In this document: positions 6,585 to 54,753 of the stretch, one piece after another
How the letters are laid out: each line of letters begins with the position of its first letter
Position numbering within the stretch: the first letter of the stretch is position 1
DNA from: Candidatus Magasanikiibacteriota bacterium
GTDB lineage: Bacteria; Patescibacteriota; Patescibacteriia; Magasanikbacterales; UBA922
Assembly (NCBI GenBank): GCA_018651085.1
Contig: JABIEQ010000014.1
Span: 15,178-79,177 of the forward strand
DNA: 64,000 nucleotides
Direction: 5' to 3'
Made by a program: the position numbers and the translations under genes
The notes under the pieces: model-generated
What the model was told of the DNA's origin: nothing
Seen by the model: only the letters and a program-made list of their open reading frames with translations
Database searches by the model: none

Positions 6585-6591
6585 ACATACT

Positions 6592-7941: not shown

Positions 7942-7943
7942 AT

Positions 7944-8708
7944 ATGATTCCTTGGATTCACTACAACGTTATTAACATTGGCCCTCTACCTATTCAGGTA
8001 TGGGGGTTGTTTGTTGCTATAGGCCTTATTGTATCAGTAGCAATCATTACAAAACGTGCCCCAAAAATGGGACTACAAAAAGAACAAATCCTTGATATGG
8101 TTATTTGGGCTTTGTTTGGTGGATTTATTATGTCGAGAATATTTCACATTGCTTTATATGAACCAGGCTTTTATATTGCCAACCCTCTAGAAATGGTAAA
8201 AGTATGGCAAGGAGGATTATCTTCCTTTGGTGGTGTCGCAGGTGCAGCCTTGGGTATCCTTCTTTACGCAAAAAGAAAAGGAATAGTCATAAAAACATTA
8301 CTCCCAACGATAGATCTATTGAGTTTTTCAGCCCTTTTTGGATGGATCTTTGGGCGGATTGGATGCTTTTTAATTCATGATCATCCTGGAACGCTTTCTC
8401 ATAGCTTTCTTGCTGTGAAAAATCCAAATGGATCAAGGTTAGACATGGCATTTTTAGAAATATTGGCACTGTTGCCGTTAGTTGTATTTTTTATACTAAC
8501 AAGAAAGAAAAAATACCCAGAAGGATTCTATACAGCTATACTATTTATATACTACGGCATAACACGCATAGTATTAGATTTTTTTAGAGCAACTGATGTC
8601 TCTCATGCTGATGTACGCTATCTTGGATTGACGCCTGGGCAATACATTGCTATTGTCATGGTACTTTTTGGTATAGCAATATACATAAGAAAAGTACATA
8701 AAAAGTAG
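7944..8708 (+). CDS. lgt: prolipoprotein diacylglyceryl transferase
   Basis: Polytopic membrane protein with the Lgt-like N-terminus (IGPLPIQVWGLFVAIG) and a GRIGCFLIHDHPG motif, 254 aa. Confidence 0.7.
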   Translation: MIPWIHYNVINIGPLPIQVWGLFVAIGLIVSVAIITKRAPKMGLQKEQILDMVIWALFGGFIMSRIFHIALYEPGFYIANPLEMVKVWQGGLSSFGGVAGAALGILLYAKRKGIVIKTLLPTIDLLSFSALFGWIFGRIGCFLIHDHPGTLSHSFLAVKNPNGSRLDMAFLEILALLPLVVFFILTRKKKYPEGFYTAILFIYYGITRIVLDFFRATDVSHADVRYLGLTPGQYIAIVMVLFGIAIYIRKVHKK

Positions 8709-8798
8709 GGAAGGATGGCTGAGTGGTCGAAAGCGCTTGCTTGGAAAGCAAGTGTACGAGAAATCGTACCGTGGGTTCGAATCCCGCTCCTTCCGCCA
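8709..8798 (+). tRNA. tRNA-Ser (anticodon GGA), CCA encoded
   Basis: Cloverleaf readable: acceptor GGAAGGA/TCCTTCC, anticodon loop TTGGAAA, long variable arm, T-loop GGTTCGAATCC, 3' GCCA. Confidence 0.9.
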
Positions 8799-8807
8799 AT
8801 ATAGAAT

Positions 8808-9395
8808 ATGAATATCACTTTATACCAAATTATATTTGACTGGGGAGGAGTATTAGCTCCAGATGATTCTTTGCTTGCCGCAGAACACCTTTCAAAAAAG
8901 TACAAATGTGATTATGAAGAATTACGAAAAGTGCTCTGGGATGAAGAGGGCTTTTCTGAAGGAAAAAATGAAGAAGGATATTTTAAAAAAATACTAGAGA
9001 AATTTCCTATACCAAAAGAAGAGATTATAGAATGGAAAAACAAAGCGCTTCCAAATGACACCTTCACTTTTTGTCATAAGTTGAAAAAGAAAGGATATAC
9101 AGTACACCTTCTATCAGACCAGATGCAATGGAGAGCTGACTTTATAAGAAATAACTTTGATTTGCAATGTTTTGATCAAATAATGTTTTCTTCTGAAATT
9201 GGACATATAAAAAAAGAAAAGGAAGCATTTTTGTGTATGATAAATGCAGGAAGAATAGATCTTAAAAAAGCAGTATTTGTTGATGATTCTAAATGTAAAA
9301 TAGCCGTAGCAAAAGAAGTTGGGTTAGATGCTATTTTGTATATAAATCTACCTGATTTGAAAAAACAATTACATAAAAGAGGGATTACTATATAA
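8808..9395 (+). CDS. HAD-superfamily hydrolase-like protein
   Basis: Motif I-like FDWGGVL at the N-terminus and a VFVDDS motif near the C-terminus. The second Asp of DxD is replaced, so the call is tentative. Confidence 0.45.
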   Translation: MNITLYQIIFDWGGVLAPDDSLLAAEHLSKKYKCDYEELRKVLWDEEGFSEGKNEEGYFKKILEKFPIPKEEIIEWKNKALPNDTFTFCHKLKKKGYTVHLLSDQMQWRADFIRNNFDLQCFDQIMFSSEIGHIKKEKEAFLCMINAGRIDLKKAVFVDDSKCKIAVAKEVGLDAILYINLPDLKKQLHKRGITI

Positions 9396-9499
9396 GGTGA
9401 TTCTTTTTTAAATATAAGATATTTTGTATACTAAGGGAGTCTTTAATTATGTACAAGAAAATAAATAAAATATAGAGTTTAATAAATTATTTTATCCAT

Positions 9500-10216
9500 A
9501 TGAAAAATAAAGTAAGCATTATCCTTGGAATGTGTGCTATCACATTATTTGTAGGGGTTGGTTGTAATTGGCATTTTGAGGTAGGAAAAGATCTAAACCA
9601 AGAAGAAAATGATGAAGAAATTGTAGAGAGCCTGAAAGAAGAACCTCAAGCCATAGAAGAAAACATAGTAATACCAGAAAATGAAGTAATAAAAGAAATA
9701 ATACAAGAAGCTGTTAAAGAAGAAAATGTAGAAATCAAAAATGCAGTATGTAAAACATTAGATTGTTTTATGGAATTGGCAAACGATTGTAAAAAAGGGG
9801 AAGTTACTCATTATTATAGCGTGCCATTTTTACTAGGTGATGGGGTAAATATGACAGGTATAAATAGATACGTACTTCATGGGAGAGATAAAAACAAACA
9901 ATGTACCTTTACACAGCAATCACAAGGTTCTGAAGCTAAAATTTCAATAGAAGGTAGAGAAAAGGCTTTAGCCGAAGGATTCACAAACGAAGAAGTTGAT
10001 GCTCAAATAGAAGCCATAAATGGAGCATTAAATGATCCGGCTCTTTTAGAGAGTATTATGACATGTAGAGGAGCAGAAAAAGACATCATTACTTACTTAC
10101 AAAATACACAACAAGGGATTGGGAAAACCTCTTGTTCATTTGATTTTGGAAAAGACGAAACAGTATGTATTGTAGAACCTAATTTATCGTGTATTACAAA
10201 GATAACAACAAAATAG
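9500..10216 (+). CDS. Cys-rich putative lipoprotein, hypothetical
   Basis: Signal peptide with lipobox-like FVGVGC, an acidic low-complexity linker and several Cys residues. Confidence 0.5.
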   Translation: MKNKVSIILGMCAITLFVGVGCNWHFEVGKDLNQEENDEEIVESLKEEPQAIEENIVIPENEVIKEIIQEAVKEENVEIKNAVCKTLDCFMELANDCKKGEVTHYYSVPFLLGDGVNMTGINRYVLHGRDKNKQCTFTQQSQGSEAKISIEGREKALAEGFTNEEVDAQIEAINGALNDPALLESIMTCRGAEKDIITYLQNTQQGIGKTSCSFDFGKDETVCIVEPNLSCITKITTK

Positions 10217-10241
10217 AAGGTGGACTCTAACAGTAAGAAAC

Positions 10242-10547
10242 ATGAAGTATAATAAGCTTGTACGAGATAATATTCCAGAAATTATTAAAGCAAATGGGGA
10301 GGCTTCAATGATTCACATCGCAGGAGAAACAGAATATAAAGAAAAACTCATTGAAAAACTACAAGAAGAAGTAGATGAATTTATAAAAGATAACTCAAAA
10401 GAAGAGCTTGCTGACATTCTTGAAGTTATTTATGCCTTAGGAGATCTGTATGAGATTAAAAAAGAAGAACTTGAAAAAATACGACAGATTAAAGCAGAAA
10501 AAAGAGGAACATTCACAAAAAGAATCATTTTAGAAGAAACAACATAA
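10242..10547 (+). CDS. MazG-like nucleoside triphosphate pyrophosphohydrolase (small all-alpha NTP-PPase)
   Basis: N-terminus KLVRDNIPEII and EExxE/D acidic helices typical of ~100-aa MazG/HisE-like pyrophosphohydrolases. Confidence 0.55.
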   Translation: MKYNKLVRDNIPEIIKANGEASMIHIAGETEYKEKLIEKLQEEVDEFIKDNSKEELADILEVIYALGDLYEIKKEELEKIRQIKAEKRGTFTKRIILEETT

Positions 10548-10566
10548 GTATTAAAAAGAGTAAAGT

Positions 10567-11376
10567 ATGAAAAAAACGATACTTATCACCGGGGCATCAA
10601 CTGGTATTGGAAAAGAAGTGGCCTTATATTTTGCTAAAAAAGGTTGGCATGTTGCGGCAACCATGAGAAGTCCAGAAAAACATTCTTTTAAACATACAAC
10701 AATTAAAAAATACAAACTAGATGTTACAGACCAACATTCTATAAAAGATACAATACAAAAAGTAATTCAGGAATTAGGTTCTATTGATGTTATTGTAAAC
10801 AATGCTGGTTACGGAGCACTTGGTATTTTCGAAAAAGCAACGACAGAACAAATTCAAAAACAATTTGAAGTAAACGTTTTTGGGGTCATGAATGTGATTC
10901 GTCATACATTACCACATTTCAAAAAGAAAAAAGCAGGTCTTATTATAAACATTTCTTCAATGGCTGGATTATTAGGTATACCAATGTACAGTGTATATCA
11001 TGGATCTAAATGGGCACTTGAAGGATTTACTGAATCATTACAATTTGAACTACAACCATTTAATATACAGGTTAAAAACGTAGAACCCGGAGCAATTAAA
11101 ACAGACTTTTATACACGTTCTCAAGAAGTATTCACCAATGAGAGTATTAAAGGGTATGATACCTATGAAGCAATAATTAAAGGTGTGATAAAAAAAACAG
11201 GAGAAACTGCCCCAGGACCAAAAACGGTAGCAGAAGTAGTATATAAAGCCGCAACTGATGGAAAAAATCGTTTGCGGTACCCCGTAGGAAAAAAAATCTG
11301 GTCGCTATTACTTGCAAAAAAATTATTGCCAAATCGAGTATTCTTTTTTATAGTGAAACAAATGATGAGGAGATGA
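10567..11376 (+). CDS. short-chain dehydrogenase/reductase (SDR)
   Basis: TGASTGIG Rossmann motif, NNAG, and the catalytic YxxxK (YHGSK). Confidence 0.85.
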   Translation: MKKTILITGASTGIGKEVALYFAKKGWHVAATMRSPEKHSFKHTTIKKYKLDVTDQHSIKDTIQKVIQELGSIDVIVNNAGYGALGIFEKATTEQIQKQFEVNVFGVMNVIRHTLPHFKKKKAGLIINISSMAGLLGIPMYSVYHGSKWALEGFTESLQFELQPFNIQVKNVEPGAIKTDFYTRSQEVFTNESIKGYDTYEAIIKGVIKKTGETAPGPKTVAEVVYKAATDGKNRLRYPVGKKIWSLLLAKKLLPNRVFFFIVKQMMRR

Positions 11377-11540: not shown

Positions 11541-14384
11541 ATGGCATATATGAGAAGACATCTCCTCGCATTTATTATCATGGCAGTGGTTATTGGGGCC
11601 GCTAGTATTTCTGCATTAGCAGTAAATGCACAAATAGACATATTAAGTAATATTAACAATGCACAAAGTTGTACAGAAATAGAAGGACAAAGCCCTGTCA
11701 TTGATCCATTTACAGGAGAAGCCGAATGTCGATGTGAGTCCGGCCATGAAGTCAATGAAAAAGGGACAAAATGTGTCAAAGTTGAGATTACAACATGTCC
11801 AAGTGGAGAAGAAAAGAACATATTTGGAGAATGTATTCCAATTGTAGAACAAGATCCTGAACCAACTAGTTGTGAAAATAAAACATATAATCAAGGGGTG
11901 TACGACAATGTATATGATCTAGATGGGGACTGTCATATGTCAGAAGGGCCAGAGAATCTTCCAACAGGATATCCAATTGATTGTGATGATTCACTTCCTG
12001 ATGGAGCAGATAGATTTGAAAACTGTGAAGAAGTTGTAGAAACTTCTGAATGTCCAGAAGGACAAGAAATAAACCCAAACGGTGCTTGTGTACCTGTAAT
12101 TCAGGAAACACAAGGATGCCCAGAAGGGGAAGAGTTAAATCCTAATGGGGCATGTGTTCCTGTCGTAACAGAAGAAGATTGTGGAACAGAGCTATATAAC
12201 GTCGGGATCTATAACAATGTATATGATCTAGACGGGGATTGTCATATGTCAGAAGGCCCAGAGAATCTTCCAACAGGATATCCAATTGATTGTGATGATT
12301 CACTTCCTGATGGAGCAGATAGATTTGAAAACTGTGAAGAAGAAACAACTGACGAATGTCCAGATGGAACACATCTTGGCGTAACTGGGCCAAACGATAA
12401 AACACCAGCGTGTGTGCCGGACGAAGAAGGATGTGAAGAAGGTTTTGTTGTTGTTCCAGGGTATTCACCAAATGGATTACCAATAACAACATGTATTGAA
12501 GAAGAAGTAGGGTGTCCAGATGGAACACATCTTGGTGTAACTGGACCAAACGATAAAACACCAGCATGTGTACCAAACGTAGAACTAAGTGGGGAAGAAT
12601 GTGCTGAAGGAGAAGTATTACTACTTGCGTATGACGAAAATGGTGTTCCGGTAACGCAGTGTGTCACACAATGTGAAATAGGAACGACGCTACAACAAAC
12701 ACAAGTGGCTGGTGACACCGTATACACCTGTGTAGAGGTAGATACTGCATGTACGCCAGGACAAGTAACACAATTTTCTCAAACATCTATTACCCATGCA
12801 CTTCTTGAAGAATGTACAAATAGAGAAGACGTTTGTACAGGTTCAGGTGAAGTAGCAGAGTATAGTGTGACTGGATTATTCTTAGGATGTAATACCGGAT
12901 GCCCAGATGGACAAATTGTAATTAGTTATACAACAGACGATGGATTGAGTTATGAAGAGTGTGCAAATCCATCAGAAGATGATGTTTGCGATCCAAATGA
13001 ACATCCTGGGTTTCAAAGCACATCAATTATTGTGAACCAAACAACAGGAGAAGGACGTTGTTTAGAAGAAGATGAAGATATCTGCGAAGAAGGACAAGTT
13101 ATTGGGTACACATTTTCAGGATTACCAACATGTGTAGATCAATGTGCTGACGGAGAAATTATCTATGAGTGGACTGGAAAAGACGGTGAAGTGTATCAAG
13201 AATGTTATAGTCCAGAAGAAAATAACGACGAAGGCTATGACGATGTTTGTGAAGAAGATCAAGTACTGACTATTCAAAGTACAAATGTAGAAAATCATCA
13301 AATCATTGCAGAATGCTTAGATGAAGATCTTATTTGTGAAGAAGGACAAGAAGTCATTTATGATGGATCTGGTCTTGCAAGTTGTGCTGATAGGTGTGAA
13401 AACGGAGAAGTACCAATATTAGGATACGATCCAAATGGTCTACCAACAAGCATTTGTGTAGAAGAAAATGAAGACATTTGTGAAGATGGAGAAATATTAG
13501 GATATGATGCCAACGGTCTTCCTTTAGGTGATGGTGAATGTGTAGAGGAAGAAGAAGTATGTGCAGACGGAGAAATATTAGTACACACTACAACTGGCTA
13601 TGGAGTCTGCCAAGAAGAAGAAGTTGGTTGTCCAGCGGGATACGTGGCTTTCTATGATGGTTCAGGAGCACTCTTTTGTGAAGTACCAGAAGCAGGATGT
13701 GTAGACGGACAAGTATCAGCTCCGGTACAAACAATTGTTATCCAACAAGCAAATACTAGTTACGAAGAAACAATTTATAGTTGTTATGAACCAGAAGATG
13801 CCTGTACAGATAGTGAAAGTGGAGCATTATTTAGCCAAGCAGCAACAACTGGACTTGGTGGATGTCAAGAAAACTGTCCAGCAGGGCAATTGCTCGTAGA
13901 AGCACAAAGTGCGACAGGTGAACCGTACCTAACTTGCGAAAGTCCAATTGAACCGGCATTTTTCCAACAATACAGTGGAGAAGGGAATACTGATGACGAT
14001 GAAGAAAATCAAGATGGACAGGTGTTTGTGGCAATATCATCTGGATCAGGAGCAGATGCTGACGAAACAGTATACGTAAAGAAAAACAAAGAAGAGGCTT
14101 GCCCTGCAGGAACAAGCTTGTTACTAGATCAATCAAATAGAGCAAGTTGTGTAAGAGAATGTCCAGTGGATCACATTAGAACAGAAAGACGATTACGTGG
14201 AACAAAGTTCCAAGAGTGTGTACCACTCACAAGCCTTACAGAAAGAGAACAACGCCAAGCACTAAGAAGTACAAATGCAAATGATAAACGAGTATATGTA
14301 CTTGTCGGAATTGCAATAGTACTTGTAGCATTGCTAGTCGGATTATTCACTCAAGCAAAAAAGAAAGAAGAAATCGGACAATAA
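11541..14384 (+). CDS. large secreted/surface Cys-rich acidic repeat protein with a C-terminal transmembrane anchor
   Basis: Signal peptide, about 947 aa, dozens of CP(D/E)G...C repeats, internal near-identical nucleotide duplications, and a C-terminal hydrophobic helix VYVLVGIAIVLVALLVGLF followed by a KKKEE tail. Confidence 0.7.
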   Translation: MAYMRRHLLAFIIMAVVIGAASISALAVNAQIDILSNINNAQSCTEIEGQSPVIDPFTGEAECRCESGHEVNEKGTKCVKVEITTCPSGEEKNIFGECIPIVEQDPEPTSCENKTYNQGVYDNVYDLDGDCHMSEGPENLPTGYPIDCDDSLPDGADRFENCEEVVETSECPEGQEINPNGACVPVIQETQGCPEGEELNPNGACVPVVTEEDCGTELYNVGIYNNVYDLDGDCHMSEGPENLPTGYPIDCDDSLPDGADRFENCEEETTDECPDGTHLGVTGPNDKTPACVPDEEGCEEGFVVVPGYSPNGLPITTCIEEEVGCPDGTHLGVTGPNDKTPACVPNVELSGEECAEGEVLLLAYDENGVPVTQCVTQCEIGTTLQQTQVAGDTVYTCVEVDTACTPGQVTQFSQTSITHALLEECTNREDVCTGSGEVAEYSVTGLFLGCNTGCPDGQIVISYTTDDGLSYEECANPSEDDVCDPNEHPGFQSTSIIVNQTTGEGRCLEEDEDICEEGQVIGYTFSGLPTCVDQCADGEIIYEWTGKDGEVYQECYSPEENNDEGYDDVCEEDQVLTIQSTNVENHQIIAECLDEDLICEEGQEVIYDGSGLASCADRCENGEVPILGYDPNGLPTSICVEENEDICEDGEILGYDANGLPLGDGECVEEEEVCADGEILVHTTTGYGVCQEEEVGCPAGYVAFYDGSGALFCEVPEAGCVDGQVSAPVQTIVIQQANTSYEETIYSCYEPEDACTDSESGALFSQAATTGLGGCQENCPAGQLLVEAQSATGEPYLTCESPIEPAFFQQYSGEGNTDDDEENQDGQVFVAISSGSGADADETVYVKKNKEEACPAGTSLLLDQSNRASCVRECPVDHIRTERRLRGTKFQECVPLTSLTEREQRQALRSTNANDKRVYVLVGIAIVLVALLVGLFTQAKKKEEIGQ

Positions 14385-31056: not shown

Positions 31057-31887
31057 TCAGATGATGCCGTAAACCAACTCTTCGTAGACAGAGGTCATGG
31101 CATGAGTGACCTCACCGACCTGATCCGCTCGCAGGCCAAAGAGCGGTGCTGCCGCAAAGATCCCCCAGAGTCGCAGGTAGAGATCGGTGTGGGCAATCGT
31201 CACTTCGTCTGCTTGAAGGCCAAAGAAGGCCTCAACGAAGATCTCGATCGACCCAAGACGAAGCGCCTTGACGTGTTCAACCGAAACCGTACGCGGATCT
31301 GAGTAATCGTAGAGTTTCTTCGCTACGATTGTTTGTTGATCTTGGGCAAAAAGCCATTCCCCGAACTCCTCGGGGTCCACAAGTTCCCCACTAGGAATCT
31401 TCCTAGTCTGCTGGAAGGAAGTTAACTTCATCTGTAGATTCCGAAAGGTCTCGAAGAGAAGTTCTTGCGGAGTGAAGTCAAAGAGTGTTGCTCGATCCAT
31501 CATGAGGAGTGCCGTTTCACCGGCAACCGCGTCGGCGTGATCCACATGGTACAGCCCGTCGACAGACCTGTTTTCAAGAAGGCAAGCAAGACGAGCAAGA
31601 TCAGTCTGATCGAGACCAAACTGGATGAGATCGACTCCGTTGAGCCCAAAGGACGTCTTCAACTCTCTCAGCTCCCTTCTTGTCAGATGCTCAGGAGCAA
31701 AGAGATTCTTGTAGTGCGCCGCCGCCGCCTCTGCCGCCGCCCTTTCTTCCTCGAGCGTAGAGACCTCTTTTTCCTTGTGGAAGTAGACTCCTACGGTCGT
31801 CGAAAGAAAAAACAGGGCCAGCAAAGAAGCCAGGACAGCGATGACGAGAGTGATGATGGTGATGGGGGCCATGGGGGGTGTCTCCAA
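31057..31887 (-). CDS. G+C-rich single-pass membrane protein, hypothetical (276 aa)
   Basis: Clean ORF with a GGAGA RBS and an N-terminal TM helix (ITIITLVIAVLASLLALFFL). Its composition is markedly more G+C-rich than the genome background. No known domain. Confidence 0.6.
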   Translation of the reverse strand: METPPMAPITIITLVIAVLASLLALFFLSTTVGVYFHKEKEVSTLEEERAAAEAAAAHYKNLFAPEHLTRRELRELKTSFGLNGVDLIQFGLDQTDLARLACLLENRSVDGLYHVDHADAVAGETALLMMDRATLFDFTPQELLFETFRNLQMKLTSFQQTRKIPSGELVDPEEFGEWLFAQDQQTIVAKKLYDYSDPRTVSVEHVKALRLGSIEIFVEAFFGLQADEVTIAHTDLYLRLWGIFAAAPLFGLRADQVGEVTHAMTSVYEELVYGII

Positions 31888-32164: not shown

Positions 32165-32953
32165 CTACGATGAGGGAGTATCCTCGTCGAGGTCAATCAT
32201 GGGAAGTTCCTCCTCGGGGGCAAATTCCGTGTCGGCCATGGTGACACGGTAGACCACGCTGAGAAACAGCTGAACTTTCTCTTTCTCGAGAAGCTCAAGC
32301 GAGGACAACATAAGCCCCGAGAGGCCTCCTGCCCTGTATCGAGCCGCCGTCTTGAAGTAGCGTTCGAACTGTGAGGCCGTAAGGGGGGCGATCGGCGAAA
32401 GCCCGTACCATTGCCGAGCCAGAGCCTCTTCCCGCTTTGAGCGGTAGGCATCAAGTTCCTCAGGGGTGAAGCTCGTCGCCGTGTATCTGCCCGGCTTTCC
32501 AGTTCGCTCCTCCATGTTTCTGATCTTGGCCAGTTCCTCGGCGTCCTTGTCCGTAAGGTAGGAAGCCATCTCTTCCGAGAGGGGATACTTCCCTTTGAAC
32601 CTGCCTCGGTATTGACTCATGCAGACGTAGAGAAAGCCCAGGAGTTCGTCCCCTGAGAGCCCTTTCGAACCGGCGGTGTCCATCGCGAGAAGAACTGTCC
32701 CCAGGAGTCCTTCACCCTGCATCTTCTTTGAGACAGGGCCGCCATGAGACAATGTCTCGTTCGCTTGCTCCAGGCGCCGGATTTCCCCTCTCATCCAATC
32801 GGCGTCCTTTTCAAGGGACGCGTAAGAGGCCTCAAGAGGATCAATAGTAGCTCTTAGTTGTTCGAGCCCCGGTTTGTACCAGAGGTAGTACGCAACCACC
32901 GCTTGCAACGCACCGAAGCCGAGGACGACCAAGATGGCCATTGTAATGCTCAT
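32165..32953 (-). CDS. G+C-rich single-pass membrane protein with a coiled-coil, hypothetical (262 aa)
   Basis: N-terminal TM helix (MAILVVLGFGALQAVVAYYLWY) and a coiled-coil region. G+C-rich. No known domain. Confidence 0.6.
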   Translation of the reverse strand: MSITMAILVVLGFGALQAVVAYYLWYKPGLEQLRATIDPLEASYASLEKDADWMRGEIRRLEQANETLSHGGPVSKKMQGEGLLGTVLLAMDTAGSKGLSGDELLGFLYVCMSQYRGRFKGKYPLSEEMASYLTDKDAEELAKIRNMEERTGKPGRYTATSFTPEELDAYRSKREEALARQWYGLSPIAPLTASQFERYFKTAARYRAGGLSGLMLSSLELLEKEKVQLFLSVVYRVTMADTEFAPEEELPMIDLDEDTPSS

Positions 32954-34708: not shown

Positions 34709-34779
34709 TCGGGGATCGTCTAATGGTAGGACACCAGGTTTTGGTCCTGGGTATCGGGGTTCGAATCCCTGTCCCCGAG
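34709..34779 (+). tRNA. tRNA-Gln (anticodon UUG)
   Basis: Acceptor TCGGGGA/TCCCCGA, anticodon stem CCAGG/CCTGG with loop TTTTGGT, T-arm CGGGGTTCGAATCCCTG, discriminator G. No CCA. Confidence 0.8.
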
Positions 34780-34809
34780 CAGGCGTTTACGCCTTAACAA
34801 CATAGATAT

Positions 34810-35204
34810 TCGGCGGTAGCTCAGTGGTAGAGCAGTTGGCTGTAAAAATACTTGTATGGATGTATCCATATGAACGACTAGCAGCTCTTTGTAGGAATAC
34901 AAAGATGAATAACAAGGTGAATTGCTGGAAACCCTAACAGGAGGAGCTGAGGGTAATCAGCAGCCAAGTCTGTTTTTTCCGTATCGTTTAGTATACATTC
35001 GTGTACTGACATCGGTTACAGAAAGGTTCAGAGACTATCCCTTTTGGGAGTACTGCATAACAGTTGTTATGTGGGAAGCGCCTTGCACCCCACCGTCTTA
35101 GCATGACTAAGTATTACGAGGGTGATGATATAGTCCACACTTTAGTGAAAAACTAGAGATAATGTGTAACCAATTGGTCGCCAGTTCGAATCTGGCCCGC
35201 CGAG
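34810..35204 (+). tRNA. tRNA (most likely Asn-GUU, alternatively Thr-UGU) interrupted in the anticodon loop by a group I intron
   Basis: The 5' half TCGGCGG-TA-GCTCAGTGGTAGAGC-A-GTTGG-CTGT is followed by a ~323-nt insertion, then TAA-CCAAT-TGGTC-GCCAGTTCGAATCTGGC-CCGCCGA-G. The acceptor and T arms pair perfectly. The reconstituted loop CUGUUAA equals the canonical tRNA-Asn loop. Confidence 0.8.
34844..35166 (+). other. group I self-splicing intron (no ORF) within the tRNA anticodon loop
   Basis: Canonical R element GTTCAGAGACTA (35028-35039) and S element GATATAGTCC (35127-35136) forming P7. The 5' exon ends in U. The intron ends in G. A candidate internal guide sequence GCAGCU (about 34881-34886) pairs with the exon end GGCUGU to form P1. 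The exact splice boundaries are inferred. Confidence 0.75.
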
Positions 35205-35314
35205 CAACGATGTTAGAACCATTAAAATCCGTTATATTTAGCGGATTTTTTGGAAAGTGAAATAATGTAGTATATCTAGACAAATAGGCTTTTTTTTGTT
35301 AGGATCAAGTATCT

Positions 35315-43463: not shown

Positions 43464-45290
43464 ATGAAAAAACTAGGAAAAAGAAAAAATATCATCATCA
43501 TTATTTCAGTAATTATTGTTATTCTTATTATTGCCCTTATCGTAGGAAAAGGGGAAGAAATCAAAGAATATTCAAGCATCGACGTTGAACGAAGTGATCT
43601 TATTCAATCAGTAAATGAAACGGGTTCAGTTACTGCTGAGACAGACATCCGTTATGGATGGGAAGTATCAGGAAGAATCGTAGATATTAAAAAGAAAGCT
43701 GGAGATGAGGTAAAAAAAGGTGACATTGTTGCATTTCTTGCTGGAGGAAAACAACAAGCTCGTTTAAATGAAGCCTTTGCAGCATATCGTTCAGCTCAAG
43801 CAAAATTAAATTTAGAAATTACAGGCGTGAGCAATGAAGAGAAAAGAAAAGCCGAAGCATCAGTAACCCAAGCAGAAGCAGGGTTAACTCAAGCAAGAGC
43901 ACAAAAAGAGAAAACCGTAGCAAAAGTACAACTTGATATTGATAATGCGCAAAAAGCATTAGAAGATGCTAAAAATGATCTACAACTCGTTGAAGGAGGA
44001 TTAAACAGTCAGCTGGTAAAAAATAGTTACAACGACCTTTTAAACACACTCAAATCAGCTATCAACAAACTCGATGAAACACTCACTGAGTCAGACAATA
44101 TTTTAGGCGTTGATAATATTTTTGCAAATGATGAGTTTCAAAATGTATTAGGTATTGAAAGCGGAGGAAGTTTACAAACAGCGATAAGCTCTTATAACAC
44201 TGCCAAATTAATAAAACAGACCGCTGACAGTAACGTCATTCAATTAACAGAAGACACTCCTCAAAGTGATATTGATAGCGCTGCTATTGTTGTACAAAGT
44301 GCTCTTACAACCATGCAAACTCATCTATTTAATACACAACAAGTTTTAAATGGGACAATCCCTGTAGGGAACCTCTCTCAAAGCGAATTAGAAACATTAC
44401 AAGCAAACATCACAACAGCAAGAACAACCATTAACACCTCTCAAACAAATACCACAGGAGACATTCAAGCCGTACAAAATGCTAAAAATTCATTGTTTTC
44501 ATTTGAAATAGCATATACAAAAGCAGAGTTAACATTAGAAAACACCATAAGACAAGGAGATGCCGATAAAATTATTGCGGATGCAACGATTCAAACAGAA
44601 GAAGCAAAATTAGCGCAAGCACAAGCATCATATGATCTTCTTATTGCACCACCAAGAAATGTAGATATTGCATCACTTCAAGCAGATGTAAATCGCCAAG
44701 GAGCAAATGTTCAAGCGCTTCAAGACGATGTAAACAAAACAAAACTCATAGCCCTTGCTGACGGAATTATTGCAAATCTTAATATTGAAGTTGGAGAAAA
44801 TGTTACAGCAAATCAAGAAGTGATAACACTTATTTCTTCACAACTTACAATAGAAGTTGATGTATCAGAATCAGATATTGCAAAAGTATCTATTGGTGAT
44901 AATGTTAACATTACACTTGACGCCTTTGGTGACGACACAATCTTTAATGGAAGTGTTGTATCAGTTGAACCGGGAGAAACAGAAATATCAGGAGTAATCT
45001 ACTATAAAACAGACATTGTTCTTGAAGAAATAACAGAGGTAGATGTTCGATCAGGAATGACCGCAAACATCGATATCATCACAAACATGAAGGAACAGGC
45101 ACTTACAGTTCCACAACGAGCAATCATCAAAAAAGATGGTAAACAAATCGTGAGAATACTTACCAATGAAAAAACAGGTGAATTTTTTGAACGAGAAGTA
45201 GTAAGCGGCATTCGAGGAGATGCAGGACAAACTGAAATCATTTCAGGTATTGAAGAAGGAGAAAAAATCATTACATTCATCAAAGAATAA
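43464..45290 (+). CDS. efflux pump periplasmic adaptor (HlyD/MacA family) with a long coiled-coil
   Basis: N-terminal TM anchor, a beta-barrel/lipoyl-like segment and a roughly 300-aa coiled-coil. It precedes the ABC ATPase and permeases. Confidence 0.7.
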   Translation: MKKLGKRKNIIIIISVIIVILIIALIVGKGEEIKEYSSIDVERSDLIQSVNETGSVTAETDIRYGWEVSGRIVDIKKKAGDEVKKGDIVAFLAGGKQQARLNEAFAAYRSAQAKLNLEITGVSNEEKRKAEASVTQAEAGLTQARAQKEKTVAKVQLDIDNAQKALEDAKNDLQLVEGGLNSQLVKNSYNDLLNTLKSAINKLDETLTESDNILGVDNIFANDEFQNVLGIESGGSLQTAISSYNTAKLIKQTADSNVIQLTEDTPQSDIDSAAIVVQSALTTMQTHLFNTQQVLNGTIPVGNLSQSELETLQANITTARTTINTSQTNTTGDIQAVQNAKNSLFSFEIAYTKAELTLENTIRQGDADKIIADATIQTEEAKLAQAQASYDLLIAPPRNVDIASLQADVNRQGANVQALQDDVNKTKLIALADGIIANLNIEVGENVTANQEVITLISSQLTIEVDVSESDIAKVSIGDNVNITLDAFGDDTIFNGSVVSVEPGETEISGVIYYKTDIVLEEITEVDVRSGMTANIDIITNMKEQALTVPQRAIIKKDGKQIVRILTNEKTGEFFEREVVSGIRGDAGQTEIISGIEEGEKIITFIKE

Positions 45291-49083: not shown

Positions 49084-49578
49084 ATGGAACTTCATCCCAA
49101 ACAGAAAAAAGAACACGCATCACCAAAAGATTTTTTCTTACATCTTTTGATGATTATAACACTCTATGGAAGTGCTATTAGTATTATTATTATCGTATTT
49201 CAAATAATTAATATTTATCTCCCTGACACATTATATAATACAAATAATTACGGTGGTGTAGATAGATATAAAGATACCCTCCGAGGGGCACTTGCAACGC
49301 TTATTGTCATGTTCCCAGTATACATTGTAACAATGAAACATCTTAAAAAGATGTACATACAAATGCCAGGAAAACTTAATCTTACAATTAGAAAATGGCT
49401 CATCTACTTTACACTTTTTGTAGGAAGTATTATTACCATTATTGATCTCATTAGTATCTTAAATAATCTTCTAAGTGGAGAACTTACTGTTCGATTCACC
49501 CTCAAAGTGTTAACAGTACTCGTAGTTGTAGGAACAATTCTGTGGTATTATCTTCTTGAAATTAAAAAAAACAAGTAA
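49084..49578 (+). CDS. hypothetical membrane protein
   Basis: Start placed at the ATG after the terminator. 4 predicted TM helices. Confidence 0.4.
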   Translation: MELHPKQKKEHASPKDFFLHLLMIITLYGSAISIIIIVFQIINIYLPDTLYNTNNYGGVDRYKDTLRGALATLIVMFPVYIVTMKHLKKMYIQMPGKLNLTIRKWLIYFTLFVGSIITIIDLISILNNLLSGELTVRFTLKVLTVLVVVGTILWYYLLEIKKNK

Positions 49579-50041
49579 TATGAAAATGCTACCACACATC
49601 ACAATTGGAATTGTTGTGATACTTATTATTGTAAGTATTGTTGTAGTTGGATCTCCTCAGGAAGCAAGAAAAGTAAAATTCGATGAAAAACGAGTACAAG
49701 ACTTAGAATCTATGTACTTTGAAATAATAAATTCCTATAGTGACGAAGAAGAATTACCCAAAAATGTAGAAGAACTAACACAAATACGAAACATTCATGG
49801 ACAAAGAGCATTAATAGATCCAGAAACCGGAGAACCATACGAATATATCAAAACCGGAGAAAAAACATTTACTATATGTGCATCATTTACTACAAAAAAT
49901 AAGGAAAAGAACAAAGAACATGGGTATTCATTCTCTAGAAGAAATATTGAATGGATCCATGATACCGGACGGGTGTGCTTTGAAAAAAGTATAGATACTA
50001 ATAACGAAGGACCTCTTATAAAAAGAGAAACTCAAATATAA
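49556..50041 (+). CDS. hypothetical membrane-anchored protein
   Basis: N-terminal TM helix followed by a soluble domain. 161 aa. Confidence 0.4.
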   Translation: MKLKKTSNMKMLPHITIGIVVILIIVSIVVVGSPQEARKVKFDEKRVQDLESMYFEIINSYSDEEELPKNVEELTQIRNIHGQRALIDPETGEPYEYIKTGEKTFTICASFTTKNKEKNKEHGYSFSRRNIEWIHDTGRVCFEKSIDTNNEGPLIKRETQI

Positions 50042-50051
50042 CAACAAACAA

Positions 50052-50078
50052 AAAGACATCAGATAAACTGATGTCTTT
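50052..50078 (+). terminator. rho-independent terminator (aaagacatcag-ataaa-ctgatgtcttt)
   Basis: An 11-bp perfect stem followed by T-rich sequence. Confidence 0.65.
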
Positions 50079-50139
50079 TAGTATGAAGACGATGCAGCGT
50101 GTCGACACACTCCCTTTCGGGGATGGAATCTCCATCGTC

Positions 50140-50397
50140 TTAGCCGATCTTTTGCACCGACTGGCGACCTCCGTCAATGAGCTCAAAGGTACGCAAAGAC
50201 TCAACCGCCGACTCCAACTTTGCGACAGCTTCGCCGGGGCTATCACCCCTGTAGCGAGTCTTCGCACCGAGCGCTTGCAGAATCGCGGGGTGAGTCTTCT
50301 TCCGGTCAAACCGGCAGACCCAATCCGTATCATCATGCCTTATCTTGAGACCAAAATCTCTTCTGTGCACTAGAACCTCCTTAGGTGGATCCACCAC
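50140..50397 (-). CDS. small G+C-rich hypothetical protein, weakly HicB/UPF0150-like
   Basis: The 85-aa ORF is the most protein-like of three overlapping ORFs in a G+C-rich patch. The segment GDSPGEAVAKLESAVESL resembles the GdT-eEAl-n-reA helix of HicB-type antitoxins, but the preceding PGC motif is absent. Confidence 0.3.
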   Translation of the reverse strand: MVDPPKEVLVHRRDFGLKIRHDDTDWVCRFDRKKTHPAILQALGAKTRYRGDSPGEAVAKLESAVESLRTFELIDGGRQSVQKIG

Positions 50398-50476
50398 TCC
50401 CTGTGATAGAAACCTTATACACTATAAAGAGAAAAATTGTCTTTGTCAATGCTGTTTGCTACAATTGAGCCACCAT

Positions 50477-53404
50477 ATGAGCAAAAACACCCTAAATAAA
50501 GAACAAAAAGAGGCAGTAGAGTATACTGACGGTCCTCTTTTAATTGTGGCTGGAGCAGGAACCGGAAAAACGACAGTTATTACAAAAAAGATAGCAACCC
50601 TTATTCAGACAGGAAAAGCAAAGCCAGAAGAGATATTAGCCCTTACCTTTACAGATAAAGCAGCAGGGGAGATGGAAGAACGCGTTGATGCCTTATTAAA
50701 AGAAGGCTACCTTGATTTACATATCTCAACATTTCATACATTTTGCCAAAGAATACTCGAACAGCATGGATTAGATGTTGGTATTCCAAATACATCAAAA
50801 CTCTTGTCTCAAACAGACAGTTGGCTTCTCATGAGAAAACATATATATGATTTTAATCTCAACTATTACAGACCACTTGGAAATCCCGCAAAGCATATCC
50901 ATGAACTCATCAAGCATTTTAGTAAATGCAAGGACGAATTAATTTCTCCAGAAGAATATATTGACTATGCTAAAAGTGTTCGTGTAGATACAGATCAAAT
51001 TCACACAGAAGAAAAAGAAAGAGTAGAAGAATTAGCAAACACATACAGTGCATATAACCAACTCCTATTAGATAACGAATCTTTAGATTTTGGAGATCTT
51101 ATTTATTACGCAGTGAAACTATTAGAAAAAAGACCAAATATAAAAGAAAAACTTCAGCAACGATTTAAATATATTTTGGTAGATGAATTTCAAGATGTAA
51201 ACTGGGCTCAATATAAATTAGTACAATTACTTTCAGAAAAAAATCAGCTTACTGTTGTAGGAGACGATGATCAAAGCATTTATGCTTTTAGAGGAGCAAA
51301 CGTTGCAAACATTTTACGATTTAAAAAAGATTACAAAGATGCGAAAGAAATTGTGCTCAATAAAAATTACCGATCAGGGCAAACAATATTAGATACATCA
51401 TATACATCTATCACACATAACAATCCAAATCGACTAGAAGTGAAACTTAGTATCAATAAAAAACTAGACATAGGGACAAAAGAACAAGGAACAGGGGAAG
51501 TAGTGCGTTTACATTGCGAAAGCCTTCATGACGAAGTGTATATAACAGGAGAACACATTCTAAAACTTCAAGAAAAAGAAGATATAACCTGGAGTGATAT
51601 CGCTATATTAGTGCGAGCAAACAACCACGCCGAACCATTTTTACAAATGCTAGAAAAAAAAGGGATACCTTATGAATTCCTTGCATCAAATGGATTATAT
51701 CGTCAACCTATCGTGCTTGATGCTATAAACTTTTTTAAATTGCTTGATTCATATAGAGAATCTCACGCTGTGTATAGATTGCTTTGTCTACCATTTTTAT
51801 CAATGTCAGAAAATGACATACATAAACTTACGGGCTTTGCCAAAAGAAAAAGTGTCTCATATTACGAAGCACTAAAAAGAGGAAAAGAATATCACCTTTC
51901 AGAAGAAGGAGTAAAAATATCTGACAAGCTTCTTTCTCTTATCCATACGGGAATGAAACATGCAAGAGACAAAAAACCTTCAACAGTACTGTATGAATTT
52001 TTAGATCAAAGCGGATACTTGGCGTATCTTACAAAAGAAGAAGAAAAAGAAAATAAAAAAGTTATCCATCAAATCTATCAACTCAACACTTTTCTTGAGA
52101 TGCTTAACACCTTCGAAGAAGCAAACCCGGAAGCAGATGTCCGTGCTTTTGTTGATCAATTTGAACATATCACCAATTCAGGAGATAAAGGAAAAATGAG
52201 CCAATCCTTAGAACAACATGATGGGGTACAAGTTATGACTGTACACGGATCAAAAGGATTAGAATTTAAACATGTATTTATCGTGAACCTTGTAGAGGGG
52301 AGATTCCCAGCAAGAAAAAGAGGGCAAGGCATTCCATTGCCAGAAGTATTTATAAAAGAACAACTAGAAGAAGGAGATACCCACCTAGAAGAAGAACGGC
52401 GATTATTTTATGTTGCCCTAACAAGAGCAAAGGAAGCAGTATATCTCGTAAGTGGAGAAAACTATGGTGGCGTAAGAAAAAAGAAAATAAGTAGATTTAT
52501 CCAAGAATTACATGATGACGTGCAAGCACCACAAAAAGCAAACGAACAACATAGCACCAAAAAAGAAAATGAAACAGAACCTATGATCTATAACACCCCA
52601 AAGGCCTTTTCTTTTTCTCAAATAAAACGATACGAAACCTGCCCATATCAATATAAACTTGCTCACATATTACACATCCCTACAAAAAGTGGGCCAGCAC
52701 TAAGCTTTGGGTCAACCATACACAATACACTTCAGAAATTTTACGAACAAATTCAAGAAAAAAATAATATAAGCCAACAGTCATTGTTTGATATCACTCC
52801 GAAAAAACCAGAACCAAAAGACCCAAACGTCATTGAAGTTCCAACACTTGAAGAATTACTCACAATCTATACATCTTGTTGGATCAATGATTGGTATCAA
52901 TCAAAAACACAACGAGAATCATATAAGAAAAAAGGAGAAGACATTCTAAAAACCTTTTATGAAACACATACAGGAAAATGGCAAGTTCCAGTAACACTTG
53001 AAGGATCCTTTAAAATTGTAGTAGGGGACAGTGTCATACGAGGAAGAATCGACAGGATTGATCAAAAAGAAGATGGATCTCTTGAAATCATTGATTATAA
53101 AACCGGAAAAACAAAAGAAAAACTTAAAGCAGAAGATAAAGAACAGCTACTCATATATCAAATTGCCACAAAAACATTGCCAGCCTATCGTCATCTTGGA
53201 GAAACGAGCATGTTAACATTTTATTATCTTAATGATAATATAAAGACCTCCTTTCTAGGAACGGATAAAGAACTAGAAAAAATAGAGCAAAAAATTCAAA
53301 CCATAACAAAAAATATTAAAGATAATATTTTTCCACCAAAACCAAACAGCCATACTTGTGGCTATTGTGACTTTAAAAACATTTGTGAATATAAAGCAAC
53401 ATAA
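50477..53404 (+). CDS. UvrD/PcrA-family DNA helicase fused to a C-terminal Cas4/AddB-like Fe-S PD-(D/E)XK nuclease domain
   Basis: The start was moved to the internal ATG (MSKNTLNKEQKEAVE). Walker A GAGTGKTT and the UvrD motifs up to about residue 700. The C-terminal domain has one upstream Cys (ETCPYQY), the RecB motif IDYKTG, and a terminal C-x2-C-x5-C (CGYCDFKNIC). Confidence 0.8.
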   Translation: MSKNTLNKEQKEAVEYTDGPLLIVAGAGTGKTTVITKKIATLIQTGKAKPEEILALTFTDKAAGEMEERVDALLKEGYLDLHISTFHTFCQRILEQHGLDVGIPNTSKLLSQTDSWLLMRKHIYDFNLNYYRPLGNPAKHIHELIKHFSKCKDELISPEEYIDYAKSVRVDTDQIHTEEKERVEELANTYSAYNQLLLDNESLDFGDLIYYAVKLLEKRPNIKEKLQQRFKYILVDEFQDVNWAQYKLVQLLSEKNQLTVVGDDDQSIYAFRGANVANILRFKKDYKDAKEIVLNKNYRSGQTILDTSYTSITHNNPNRLEVKLSINKKLDIGTKEQGTGEVVRLHCESLHDEVYITGEHILKLQEKEDITWSDIAILVRANNHAEPFLQMLEKKGIPYEFLASNGLYRQPIVLDAINFFKLLDSYRESHAVYRLLCLPFLSMSENDIHKLTGFAKRKSVSYYEALKRGKEYHLSEEGVKISDKLLSLIHTGMKHARDKKPSTVLYEFLDQSGYLAYLTKEEEKENKKVIHQIYQLNTFLEMLNTFEEANPEADVRAFVDQFEHITNSGDKGKMSQSLEQHDGVQVMTVHGSKGLEFKHVFIVNLVEGRFPARKRGQGIPLPEVFIKEQLEEGDTHLEEERRLFYVALTRAKEAVYLVSGENYGGVRKKKISRFIQELHDDVQAPQKANEQHSTKKENETEPMIYNTPKAFSFSQIKRYETCPYQYKLAHILHIPTKSGPALSFGSTIHNTLQKFYEQIQEKNNISQQSLFDITPKKPEPKDPNVIEVPTLEELLTIYTSCWINDWYQSKTQRESYKKKGEDILKTFYETHTGKWQVPVTLEGSFKIVVGDSVIRGRIDRIDQKEDGSLEIIDYKTGKTKEKLKAEDKEQLLIYQIATKTLPAYRHLGETSMLTFYYLNDNIKTSFLGTDKELEKIEQKIQTITKNIKDNIFPPKPNSHTCGYCDFKNICEYKAT

Positions 53405-53407
53405 CCT

Positions 53408-53926
53408 ATGCTTCTTATTATCATAGACCTTCTTTTCCTTGCCTTACTTTTTGTCATGGTGCTCTTTTTTGTATATAACACCGTTGCCCTAAAAACAGGC
53501 GCTCCGTACGTTCCAACCAAGAAAACAACGATTGATACCATGATCAAGCTTTCAAAGCCGCAAAAAGGAGAACAGGTGGTAGATCTTGGATCAGGGGACG
53601 GTCGTATGCTCTTTGCTGTAGCAAAAACAGGAGCAACATGCATAGGAATAGAAATAAACCCTGTATTATGCTTTTATGCAAACATGAAGGCCCGTATAAA
53701 AGGAATAGAAAATGTTCACACCAAAAAAGAAAATCTCTGGAAAACTGATCTTCAACACACAAATGTACTCATGTTATATTTTTGGCCAACAAAAATGGAT
53801 GATCTCCAAAAGAAGATAGAAAAAGAAATGAAACCAGGAAGCAGGGTCATCTCTCATGCCTTTCATTTCCCAAACTGGAAACCAGAAGAGAAATCTGGTA
53901 ATGTATATTTGTATATTGTTAAATAA
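53408..53926 (+). CDS. class I SAM-dependent methyltransferase with an N-terminal TM helix
   Basis: Motif I VVDLGSGDG and a motif II region. N-terminal hydrophobic helix. Confidence 0.65.
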   Translation: MLLIIIDLLFLALLFVMVLFFVYNTVALKTGAPYVPTKKTTIDTMIKLSKPQKGEQVVDLGSGDGRMLFAVAKTGATCIGIEINPVLCFYANMKARIKGIENVHTKKENLWKTDLQHTNVLMLYFWPTKMDDLQKKIEKEMKPGSRVISHAFHFPNWKPEEKSGNVYLYIVK

Positions 53927-53931
53927 TATAA

Positions 53932-54240
53932 GTGATGGTTATGTCCCTTACCCCTCTTGGAGATGCATTAAAAGAAAAATTAGGAAAAAAAGGCCCACTA
54001 CAACAACAAGTAGAATCAGCTCAGGCGATTGAATATGCTACAGCGGTCTTTGAAGAGTTATTCGAAAAAGAGCTTGCAGCAGAAGCAAAACCACTTTTTT
54101 TGAAAAATAGAACCCTCACTGTAACGTGTGGAAGTTCAGCATTAGCGCAAGAAATACGCCTAAATCAAGCACAAATTGTAAAAAAGATTAACCAGAAACT
54201 TGGAAAAAAAGAAGTTGACCGAATACGGTACCTCGTATAA
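53932..54240 (+). CDS. DUF721 / DciA-like protein
   Basis: About 100 aa. The C-terminal pattern LKNRTLTVTCGSSALAQEIRLNQAQIVKKIN matches the DUF721 (DciA) consensus (G-L-v-v-ssaw-qEl-f-k-ll-kln). Confidence 0.5.
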   Translation: MMVMSLTPLGDALKEKLGKKGPLQQQVESAQAIEYATAVFEELFEKELAAEAKPLFLKNRTLTVTCGSSALAQEIRLNQAQIVKKINQKLGKKEVDRIRYLV

Positions 54241-54363: not shown

Positions 54364-54753
54364 ATGACCCTCAAACAATACCTCATAACGATGGCACTTG
54401 CCACGATCCTATGTTGGACATCATGGGTTTTTGTTATTATGAATGTTAATCCCCTGGAGGGTGGACTTATTGCCTTTATATTTTTTTATGTCACCCTAGG
54501 CTTTTCTTGTTTAGGCACAAGTGCCGTGGTGATATTCGCGGTGTATCGCTTTTTCTTAGGAAAAAGTATGCCCATGTTTAGATATGTTCAAAAAAGCTTC
54601 CGAGACGCTCTTTGCTTTTCCACATTTATTATTCTCTTACTCTTTTTACAAGGGAATAACTGGTTAAGCCTTTGGACAACAGGATTACTTGTTGGATGTA
54701 TCATCTTTATTCGATTGTTTCTTTTATCAATTAAAAGAGAACAAGCTCACTAA
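54364..54753 (+). CDS. hypothetical membrane protein
   Basis: 129 aa with 4 predicted TM helices. Confidence 0.4.
   Translation: MTLKQYLITMALATILCWTSWVFVIMNVNPLEGGLIAFIFFYVTLGFSCLGTSAVVIFAVYRFFLGKSMPMFRYVQKSFRDALCFSTFIILLLFLQGNNWLSLWTTGLLVGCIIFIRLFLLSIKREQAH

Follow-up and report, generated by a model that had tools for sequence, protein, structure and literature searches.

A putative PcrA/UvrD-type helicase joined to an iron-sulfur nuclease in a dciA-linked gene cluster of Patescibacteria

UvrD-Cas4 fusions, in which an N-terminal UvrD-like superfamily 1 (SF1) helicase precedes a C-terminal PF12705 Cas4-like nuclease, form the largest branch of pfam12705, are found chiefly beside type III restriction-modification or Dcm-Vsr genes and have been proposed to be defence-related (Hudaiberdiev et al. 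2017, 'Phylogenomics of Cas4 family nucleases', PMC5704561). The supplementary tree of that study has a leaf named 'Cas4-UvrD Parcubacteria group bacterium' (PMC5704561). Iron-sulfur (Fe-S) nucleases also work within the two-subunit machines AdnAB of mycobacteria and AddAB of Bacillus. In AdnAB the Fe-S cluster is in AdnA, a subunit that has a motor-like domain, is positioned at the Y-junction and cleaves the 5' strand as it is displaced. Its partner AdnB, the driving subunit, feeds the 3' strand to a nuclease of its own, which, like that of AddA, is described without an Fe-S cluster (PMC13000450); AddB is described like AdnA, as an Fe-S subunit that cuts the 5' strand (PMC12094033). Bad, a bacterial Dna2-like protein, carries an Fe-S nuclease and an SF1B helicase (PMC7430649). 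Here we analyze a helicase-nuclease gene at positions 50477-53404 of a 64-kb stretch of DNA (hereafter the window; contig JABIEQ010000014.1 of assembly GCA_018651085.1, Candidatus Magasanikiibacteriota bacterium, a member of the Patescibacteria, also termed the candidate phyla radiation or CPR). Its product shares the architecture of the UvrD-Cas4-like fusions, and since these were described computationally in 2017 the architecture itself was already known. The gene and the elements of its product are located in the window as follows (nt, nucleotides; aa, amino acids; ORF, open reading frame).

50437..50465, + strand: promoter-like site TTGTCT-17-TACAAT with a TG extension, from a consensus scan, 11 nt 5' of the ATG
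50477..53404, + strand: helicase-nuclease fusion gene, stop codon included, 975 aa (ORF list, Pfam architecture and homologues)
50492..52450, + strand: superfamily 1A (SF1A) helicase core, residues 6-658, subdomains 1A/1B/2A/2B (PF00580, PF13361, NCBIfam, PDB and Foldseek)
50549..50572, + strand: motif I / Walker A AGAGTGKT, residues 25-32, with A25 to T32 invariant in 53 homologues
51173..51202, + strand: motif II / Walker B ILVDEFQDVN, residues 233-242, with D236 to N242 invariant in 53 homologues
51254..51295, + strand: motif III VVGDDDQSIYAFRG, residues 260-273, with F271, R272 and G273 invariant in 53 homologues
52523..52579, + strand: predicted flexible linker, residues 683-701, with AlphaFold2 pLDDT (predicted local distance difference test) below 50 and zero conserved positions
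52607..53389, + strand: C-terminal nuclease domain of the PD-(D/E)XK type, residues 711-971, assigned to the Fe-S nucleases with an 'iron staple'
52640..52642, + strand: Cys722, predicted first Fe-S ligand, in the context YETCPYQYKL, 100% conserved in 119 sequences
53042..53107, + strand: catalytic motifs GRID859RID and IID873YK875TG, with D859, D873 and K875 invariant
53144..53161, + strand: QLLIYQ, the RecB-family QxxxY motif (Q890...Y894), with Q890 and Y894 invariant and aligned with QLAVY of AdnB
53357..53386, + strand: cysteine triad C961-x2-C964-x5-C970, the other predicted Fe-S ligands, 97-99% conserved in 119 sequences

Pfam assigned residues 6-287 to UvrD-helicase (E-value, E, 6e-82), residues 292-658 to UvrD_C (E 2e-48) and residues 711-971 to PDDEXK_1 (PF12705, E 2e-39), with a weaker match to Cas_Cas4 at residues 855-970 (E 4e-6). 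Both helicase models were covered almost completely (positions 1-271 of 271 for PF00580 and 1-346 of 350 for PF13361), which yields the full 1A/1B/2A/2B fold. This architecture and the motifs read in the sequence bore out an earlier note on this DNA, made from the sequence alone, that had described a single-chain UvrD-type helicase carrying a nuclease. The ATG at 50477 was favored over an upstream TTG at 50345 by the N-termini of the homologues: in a 53-sequence alignment M1 is nearly invariant and N7 and Q10 are invariant, indicating that the coordinates from 50477 are correct. The promoter-like site ahead of the ATG is a pattern match only, and comparable sites in the region are not above shuffled expectation.

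The helicase motifs, from I and Ia through II (DExx), III, IV and V to VI, are all intact and invariant across the 53 homologues; besides Walker A, the DEFQD element and VGDDDQSIYAFRG, the protein contains NYRS, TVHGSKGLEF (motif V) and EERRLFYVALTRAK (motif VI), all legible in the sequence. In an alignment of motif III, F271-R272 falls where AdnB has its aromatic 'ratchet pawl' (W325-R326; PMC13000450), suggesting that it may be the equivalent element. Among NCBIfam models the highest score was obtained for PcrA (TIGR01073, 475.8 bits against a cut-off of 911.2), followed by Rep (394 bits) and UvrD (350-367 bits), both under their equivalog cut-offs, and scores for addA_Gpos (200.6 bits, cut-off 707.65) and recB (172.4 bits, cut-off 696.05) were lower. 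Likewise, a sequence search of PDB returned PcrA (1pjr, E 6e-90), the identity to Geobacillus stearothermophilus PcrA being 32% over about 680 residues (target TM score, 0.69), and when an AlphaFold2 model of the whole protein (mean pLDDT 80.5, predicted TM score 0.75) was searched with Foldseek, PcrA, UvrD and Rep ranked highest (target TM 0.65-0.69), followed by AddA, AdnA/B, AddB and RecB. By sequence and fold, then, the motor half is nearest to PcrA/UvrD/Rep, with which it has all helicase motifs and the four-subdomain fold in common, and not to AddA, RecB or AdnB. The match to the PcrA model spans only positions 3-652 of 725, indicating that the C-terminal part of PcrA is absent; model positions 653-725 are unmatched in the fusion, which has a 290-residue nuclease domain there instead. 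In the AlphaFold2 model, residues 683-701 form what is predicted to be a disordered tether from the motor to the nuclease.

The nuclease motifs SFGSTIH749, GRID859RID, IDYKTG (residues 872-877) and QLLIY (890-894) are present in the sequence, and H749, D859, D873, K875, Q890 and Y894 are invariant in the 53-sequence alignment. The four cysteines C722, C961, C964 and C970 are 97-100% conserved among 119 aligned homologues, and the breadth of motif and cysteine conservation excludes a chance resemblance. These results agree with the earlier note, which had singled out a PD-(D/E)XK domain with the signature IDYKTG and a 1+3 cysteine arrangement (C...C-x2-C-x5-C). The helicase motifs are conserved no more strictly than the catalytic residues and Fe-S ligands of the nuclease, which is therefore under equal selection. 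In profile alignments GRID859RID and IID873YK875TG pair with GRIDAV and LDWKTG of AdnB; the catalytic core aligns to AdnB/AdnA, and the region of the cysteine triad aligns to AddB 1083-1133 and the C-terminus of ACE1. When the nuclease domain was modeled alone (pLDDT 81.7), Foldseek returned ACE1 (9iab) as the best match, with AdnA and AddB also on top and AdnB at rank 32; the NCBIfam cas4 model (TIGR00372) scored 51.8 bits against a cut-off of 65. In fold, the modeled nuclease half is therefore nearest to the Fe-S nucleases AdnA, Dna2, ACE1/Cas4 and AddB. Together, the sequence comparisons portray the protein as a predicted PcrA/UvrD-type helicase joined to an AdnA/AddB/Cas4-type Fe-S nuclease.

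This combination differs from each described system. In AdnAB and AddAB the Fe-S nuclease is on the non-driving subunit, AdnA or AddB, whose N-terminal motor is degenerate, whereas in the CPR fusion it is on a chain whose ATPase and translocation motifs are all intact; conversely, the nuclease of AdnB and AddA is described without the Fe-S cluster predicted for the fusion. AddA, RecB and AdnB are also set apart in that their equivalog level was not reached, their non-Fe-S RecB-type nuclease was not matched and no partner gene is adjacent. Because one chain unites an intact 'A-type' motor with a 'B-type' Fe-S nuclease, the label 'AddA/AdnB-like' given by the earlier note is only half right, the motor being PcrA/UvrD-like and the nuclease as in AdnA/AddB and not as in AddA, AdnB or RecB. 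Dna2 and Bad have the opposite domain order (the nuclease of Dna2 is N-terminal) and an SF1B motor that moves 5'-to-3'. Cas4 and ACE1 share the fold and the 1+3 cysteine 'iron staple' and stand alone, whereas the CPR domain is fused to a helicase, scores below the Cas4 cut-off and was found with no cas genes, CRISPR array or Argonaute. Finally, the UvrD-Cas4 fusions of 2017 were placed in restriction-modification or Dcm-Vsr contexts, whereas the CPR gene lies in a fixed dciA-proS-mreBCD cluster.

The genomic setting of the gene was examined across its family. More than 120 full-length homologues were found, and the best 120 are 55-61% identical, have the same Pfam architecture, come from sources named Magasanikbacteria, Nomurabacteria, Parcubacteria or Patescibacteria and are 957-1336 aa long (all but two within 957-1034 aa); 'ATP-dependent helicase' is the existing annotation of the gene in CPR genomes. 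At E<=1e-30 the nuclease domain returned 281 clusters, defined at the level of 50% identity, and, tandem-domain proteins aside, is C-terminal in nearly all of the best 150 representatives listed of these clusters. Two family-specific peptides matched 406 species-representative genomes, of which the best 80 loci (L009-L088, with flanks of about 8 kb) were compared. The order in these loci is helicase-nuclease, an optional methyltransferase, dciA, a 129-aa membrane protein, usually proS, and mreB, mreC and mreD, with dciA downstream of the helicase-nuclease gene in 75 of the 80 genomes and the methyltransferase in between in 26. Six further loci with called genes have the matching order, most continuing into pbp2 and greA, and a distant member whose nuclease domain is only 37% identical keeps it too; L003-L008 are among these loci. 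Such fixed synteny with core genes points to vertical inheritance as part of the core genome. Of the two signs of a housekeeping gene that the earlier note had set beforehand, a canonical AddB or RecBCD partner elsewhere and synteny kept throughout the CPR, the second was thus found. In the window the gaps from the helicase-nuclease gene to the methyltransferase gene and from there to dciA are 3 nt and 5 nt (ORF list).

53932..54240, + strand: dciA, downstream neighbor, possibly co-transcribed (PF05258, E 1.5e-15)

Several features of the family and its loci were noted in passing. In nearly all related genomes dciA is separated from proS/mreB by the gene for a multi-pass membrane protein of about 129 aa (54364-54753, + strand, in the window), which had no Pfam or PADLOC match. 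Certain members of the family exceed the rest by about 350-400 aa (P0024, 1336 aa; P0178, P0186 and P0228, about 1370 aa; and a 1365-codon ORF in L026), and P0024 carries Hint/intein Pfam domains, which suggests that these proteins contain inteins inserted in the helicase-nuclease. Tandem arrays of two to about five Fe-S Cas4-like nuclease domains without a helicase occur in metagenomic proteins (P0125, P0142, P0152, P0214 and P0257), P0125 having five copies in 1297 aa. About half of the GTDB-representative records among the 80 loci are titled 'uncultured Gammaproteobacteria bacterium' and one 'Candidatus Udaeobacter sp.'; given their gene content and synteny, these titles look like placeholders or mislabels.

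We propose that the protein is likely a housekeeping DNA repair/replication helicase-nuclease of Patescibacteria. Its N-terminal 680 residues would act as an ATP-driven PcrA/UvrD-type SF1A motor that moves 3'-to-5' along one strand and unwinds duplex DNA, starting at an end, nick or gap. In place of the C-terminal, RNA-polymerase-binding domain usual in PcrA/UvrD there would be a tether of about 20 residues and a PD-(D/E)XK nuclease, predicted from its four cysteines to be stapled by an Fe-S cluster. By analogy with AdnA, AddB, Dna2 and Cas4, whose narrow channel takes up single-stranded DNA, this nuclease would thread such DNA and cleave it, most probably the displaced 5'-ended strand, leaving a 3' tail for RecA, so that one chain would do the work for which AddAB and AdnAB use two subunits, one with the active motor and the other with the Fe-S nuclease. 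This specific 5'-strand resection model is put forward tentatively, at somewhat short of an even chance. With its PcrA-like motor and its place next to dciA, the enzyme may also take on PcrA/UvrD-type tasks in excision repair and at replication forks. A bolder extension, which we regard as rather doubtful, is that in many Patescibacteria this polypeptide is both the sole UvrD-family helicase and the sole enzyme of double-strand-break resection, tied to the replisome through its dciA linkage, and hence a minimal one-chain equivalent of AddAB/AdnAB with an 'A-type' motor and a 'B-type' Fe-S strand-splitting nuclease.

Several points weigh against this proposal. The cleavage polarity and the oligomeric state are assigned by analogy only. 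All characterized bacterial end-resection machines are heteromeric (PMC13000450), and UvrD-family helicases often need dimerization for unwinding (PMC11912403). The protein scores under every NCBIfam equivalog cut-off and by that standard is no orthologue of any named enzyme. CPR hosts may also hold AddAB, RecBCD or RecJ/RecQ, as well as a plain PcrA/UvrD. Finally, the conserved gene order may partly reflect kinship of the sampled genomes.

The alternative that survives best, which we consider possible yet unlikely, is that the protein is essentially the PcrA/UvrD of the cell, serving as an accessory replicative helicase and in RecA-filament removal and excision repair, with the nuclease a minor add-on and no part in double-strand-break resection. 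The best matches of the motor (PcrA, UvrD and Rep) and its conserved place beside dciA, a replication gene, are consistent with this role, whereas the missing C-terminal part of the PcrA model and the conservation of nuclease catalytic residues and Fe-S ligands, as strict as that of the helicase motifs, argue against it. In Firmicutes pcrA is linked to ligA. Reminiscent of this linkage, in the distant and very A+T-rich locus L008 (27% G+C) ligA (5978-8008) overlaps the start of the helicase-nuclease gene (8001-11045); nevertheless, ligA is adjacent in none of the 80 closest genomes, and we rejected the linkage as evidence of PcrA orthology.

A second alternative, that the protein is one subunit of a two-subunit machine of the AddAB/AdnAB type whose partner is encoded elsewhere in the genome, is improbable. 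It would agree with the heteromeric nature of the characterized resection complexes, with the presence of AdnB and AddA among the Foldseek matches of the whole protein and with a weak Pfam match to ADDB_N at residues 23-259. Nevertheless, adnA and adnB form one operon (PMC13000450), and no second helicase-nuclease, AddB-like gene or paralogue was found within the window, nor a paralogue in the flanks of about 8 kb of the 80 related loci, each of which has a single helicase-nuclease gene (two seeming exceptions are adjacent fragments of one gene). Moreover, the chain already unites the intact motor and the Fe-S nuclease that the heterodimers split between their subunits.

The earlier note had also raised an anti-phage (Nhi-like) function, and the gene immediately downstream, which it had correctly read as encoding a transmembrane-anchored S-adenosylmethionine (SAM) methyltransferase, bears on that possibility.

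53408..53926, + strand: membrane-anchored aKMT-like (protein-lysine) methyltransferase, a facultative neighbor outside the helicase-nuclease function

This protein is a class I SAM methyltransferase (Pfam Methyltransf_31/25) with a very hydrophobic N-terminus (Kyte-Doolittle mean of 3.2 for residues 2-22). Its PDB matches are archaeal aKMT (5jwj/5fa8) and 5bxy (E 1e-18 to 4e-21), a protein-lysine N-methyltransferase model of NCBIfam was matched at E 3e-18, under its cut-off, and the DNA-methylase motif (D/N/S)PP(Y/F/W) is not in its sequence. The gene is missing from 54 of the 80 loci and duplicated in some; it represents an insertion, found only occasionally, that separates the helicase-nuclease gene from dciA. 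Its presence in only 26 loci, its likeness to aKMT and the missing DNA-methylase motif indicate that it is not a restriction-modification partner. A PADLOC check of the locus, which the earlier note had suggested, gave strong matches of GajB models to the whole protein (E 1e-96) and matches of Cas4, DruK and Argonaute-associated nuclease models to the nuclease domain, all of which represent generic UvrD and Cas4 domain similarity. The Nhi model was absent among all 20 PADLOC matches of the nuclease domain and the best 25 of 68 of the full protein. No GajA match was found beside the gene, where the neighbors are the methyltransferase, DciA and membrane proteins, and no restriction-modification, Dcm/Vsr, cas or Argonaute gene was found among the neighbors, which are core genes; the window also has no CRISPR array. 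A phage origin was rejected, as viral contigs hold only phage Cas4-like nucleases at 24-28% identity and no close relative. An anti-phage helicase-nuclease (Nhi-like, GajB-like or a restriction-modification-associated UvrD-Cas4), with the adjacent methyltransferase marking self DNA, would fit the contexts described in 2017 (PMC5704561) and the PADLOC matches, yet it is highly improbable and largely refuted by synteny, because in 75 of 80 species genomes the gene has a fixed place among dciA, proS, mreBCD, pbp2 and greA, quite contrary to what is seen in defence islands. With no defence system found, the core flanking genes and the dciA/mreBCD synteny instead uphold the housekeeping possibility that the earlier note had entertained.

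Upstream of the helicase-nuclease gene lies a G+C-rich island, in which the earlier note had placed an orphan gene.

50051..50449, - strand: G+C-rich lineage-specific insertion with a minus-strand unit (promoter, Shine-Dalgarno sequence, ORF of 76-85 aa and terminator)

Positions 50085-50400 are 55% G+C, compared with 37% for the window. Among 17 related loci with a homologue of the upstream gene (49556-50041), 12 have a spacer of 9-80 nt between it and the helicase-nuclease gene, compared with 435 nt in the window. Public records annotate an ORF on the + strand of the island, opposite to the signals that we found: TTGACA-17-TATAGT at 50449-50421 (- strand; 11 of 12 consensus matches) is the best promoter-like site of the region, an AAGGAGG lies ahead of a GTG, the minus-strand ORF has 76-85 codons and ends at 50140, and a strong terminator is present at 50079-50051 (- strand), with a long hairpin in the unit. 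These signals suggest that the island ORF is probably expressed from the minus strand, so that the G+C richness and orphan status claimed earlier held and the + strand gene probably did not. The minus-strand ORF (50140-50397) had no homologue in 5.8 billion proteins and no Pfam or PADLOC match, and the region 50085-50400 had no match in Pfam, NCBIfam, PADLOC or Rfam. A non-coding RNA was considered and rejected, since Rfam gave nothing at the gathering level and only noise at E<=10 (BsrF, 19 bits); the folding z-scores of the island (-4.4 for the minus and -3.1 for the plus strand) stem partly from the terminator hairpin. An impression of a HicB-like fold in the minus-strand ORF was unsupported by any tool. 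The ORF is a genuine orphan and has no connection with the helicase-nuclease.

Comparison with the near-identical contig L002 gave only five differing positions in 22.9 kb. Three of them are A-to-C differences that fall in the island at regular intervals of exactly 13 nt (50191, 50204 and 50217); a diversity-generating retroelement was rejected as their source, there being no template-repeat copy in the window. Two more G+C-rich islands (51-60% compared with about 35%) are present on the minus strand, at 31057-31887 (ORF of 276 aa) and 32165-32953 (ORF of 262 aa), each ORF encoding an N-terminal hydrophobic helix; unlike the island ORFs, nearly all other genes of the window are on the + strand. 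Neither protein had a Pfam or PADLOC match and the two lack mutual similarity, and for the 276-aa protein only a 99%-identical copy of itself was found among the 5.8 billion proteins. The window therefore carries three compositionally foreign orphan genes in 64 kb.

Further observations concern other parts of the window. Rfam identified a group I intron at 34870-35158 (68 bits) inside an unannotated tRNA gene, which ARAGORN, run with its intron option, called as tRNA-Asn(GUU) at 34810-35205 (+ strand) with a 323-nt intron in the anticodon loop, directly 3' of a tRNA-Gln gene (34709-34780). The only large unassigned ORF of the window (11541-14384, + strand, 947 aa) is slightly G+C-enriched and had no Pfam match at E<=0.001. 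Finally, in a gene for an HlyD-like adaptor, positions 43820-43883 differ from contig L001 by ten substitutions in 64 nt, eight at third codon positions and two altering the amino acid, a cluster that looks like a short recombination tract between strains.

Our search of the full-text literature found no paper on the biochemistry of the fusion or its role in CPR bacteria and nothing specific on CPR recombination genes. What is modestly new here is the strictly conserved, dciA-linked core context of a CPR clade and the pairing of a predicted active motor with an AdnA/AddB-type nuclease. The setting of this gene tempers the 2017 proposal that UvrD-Cas4 fusions are defence-related, in that a large CPR clade of them is core and replication-linked. 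The fusion also offers a tractable model for the action of an Fe-S 'wedge' nuclease attached directly to a driving motor. If it is true that the single chain resects DNA ends alone, no simpler end-processing machine would be known in bacteria, and the fusion would show how streamlined genomes of about 1 Mb replace the multi-subunit AddAB, AdnAB or RecBCD.

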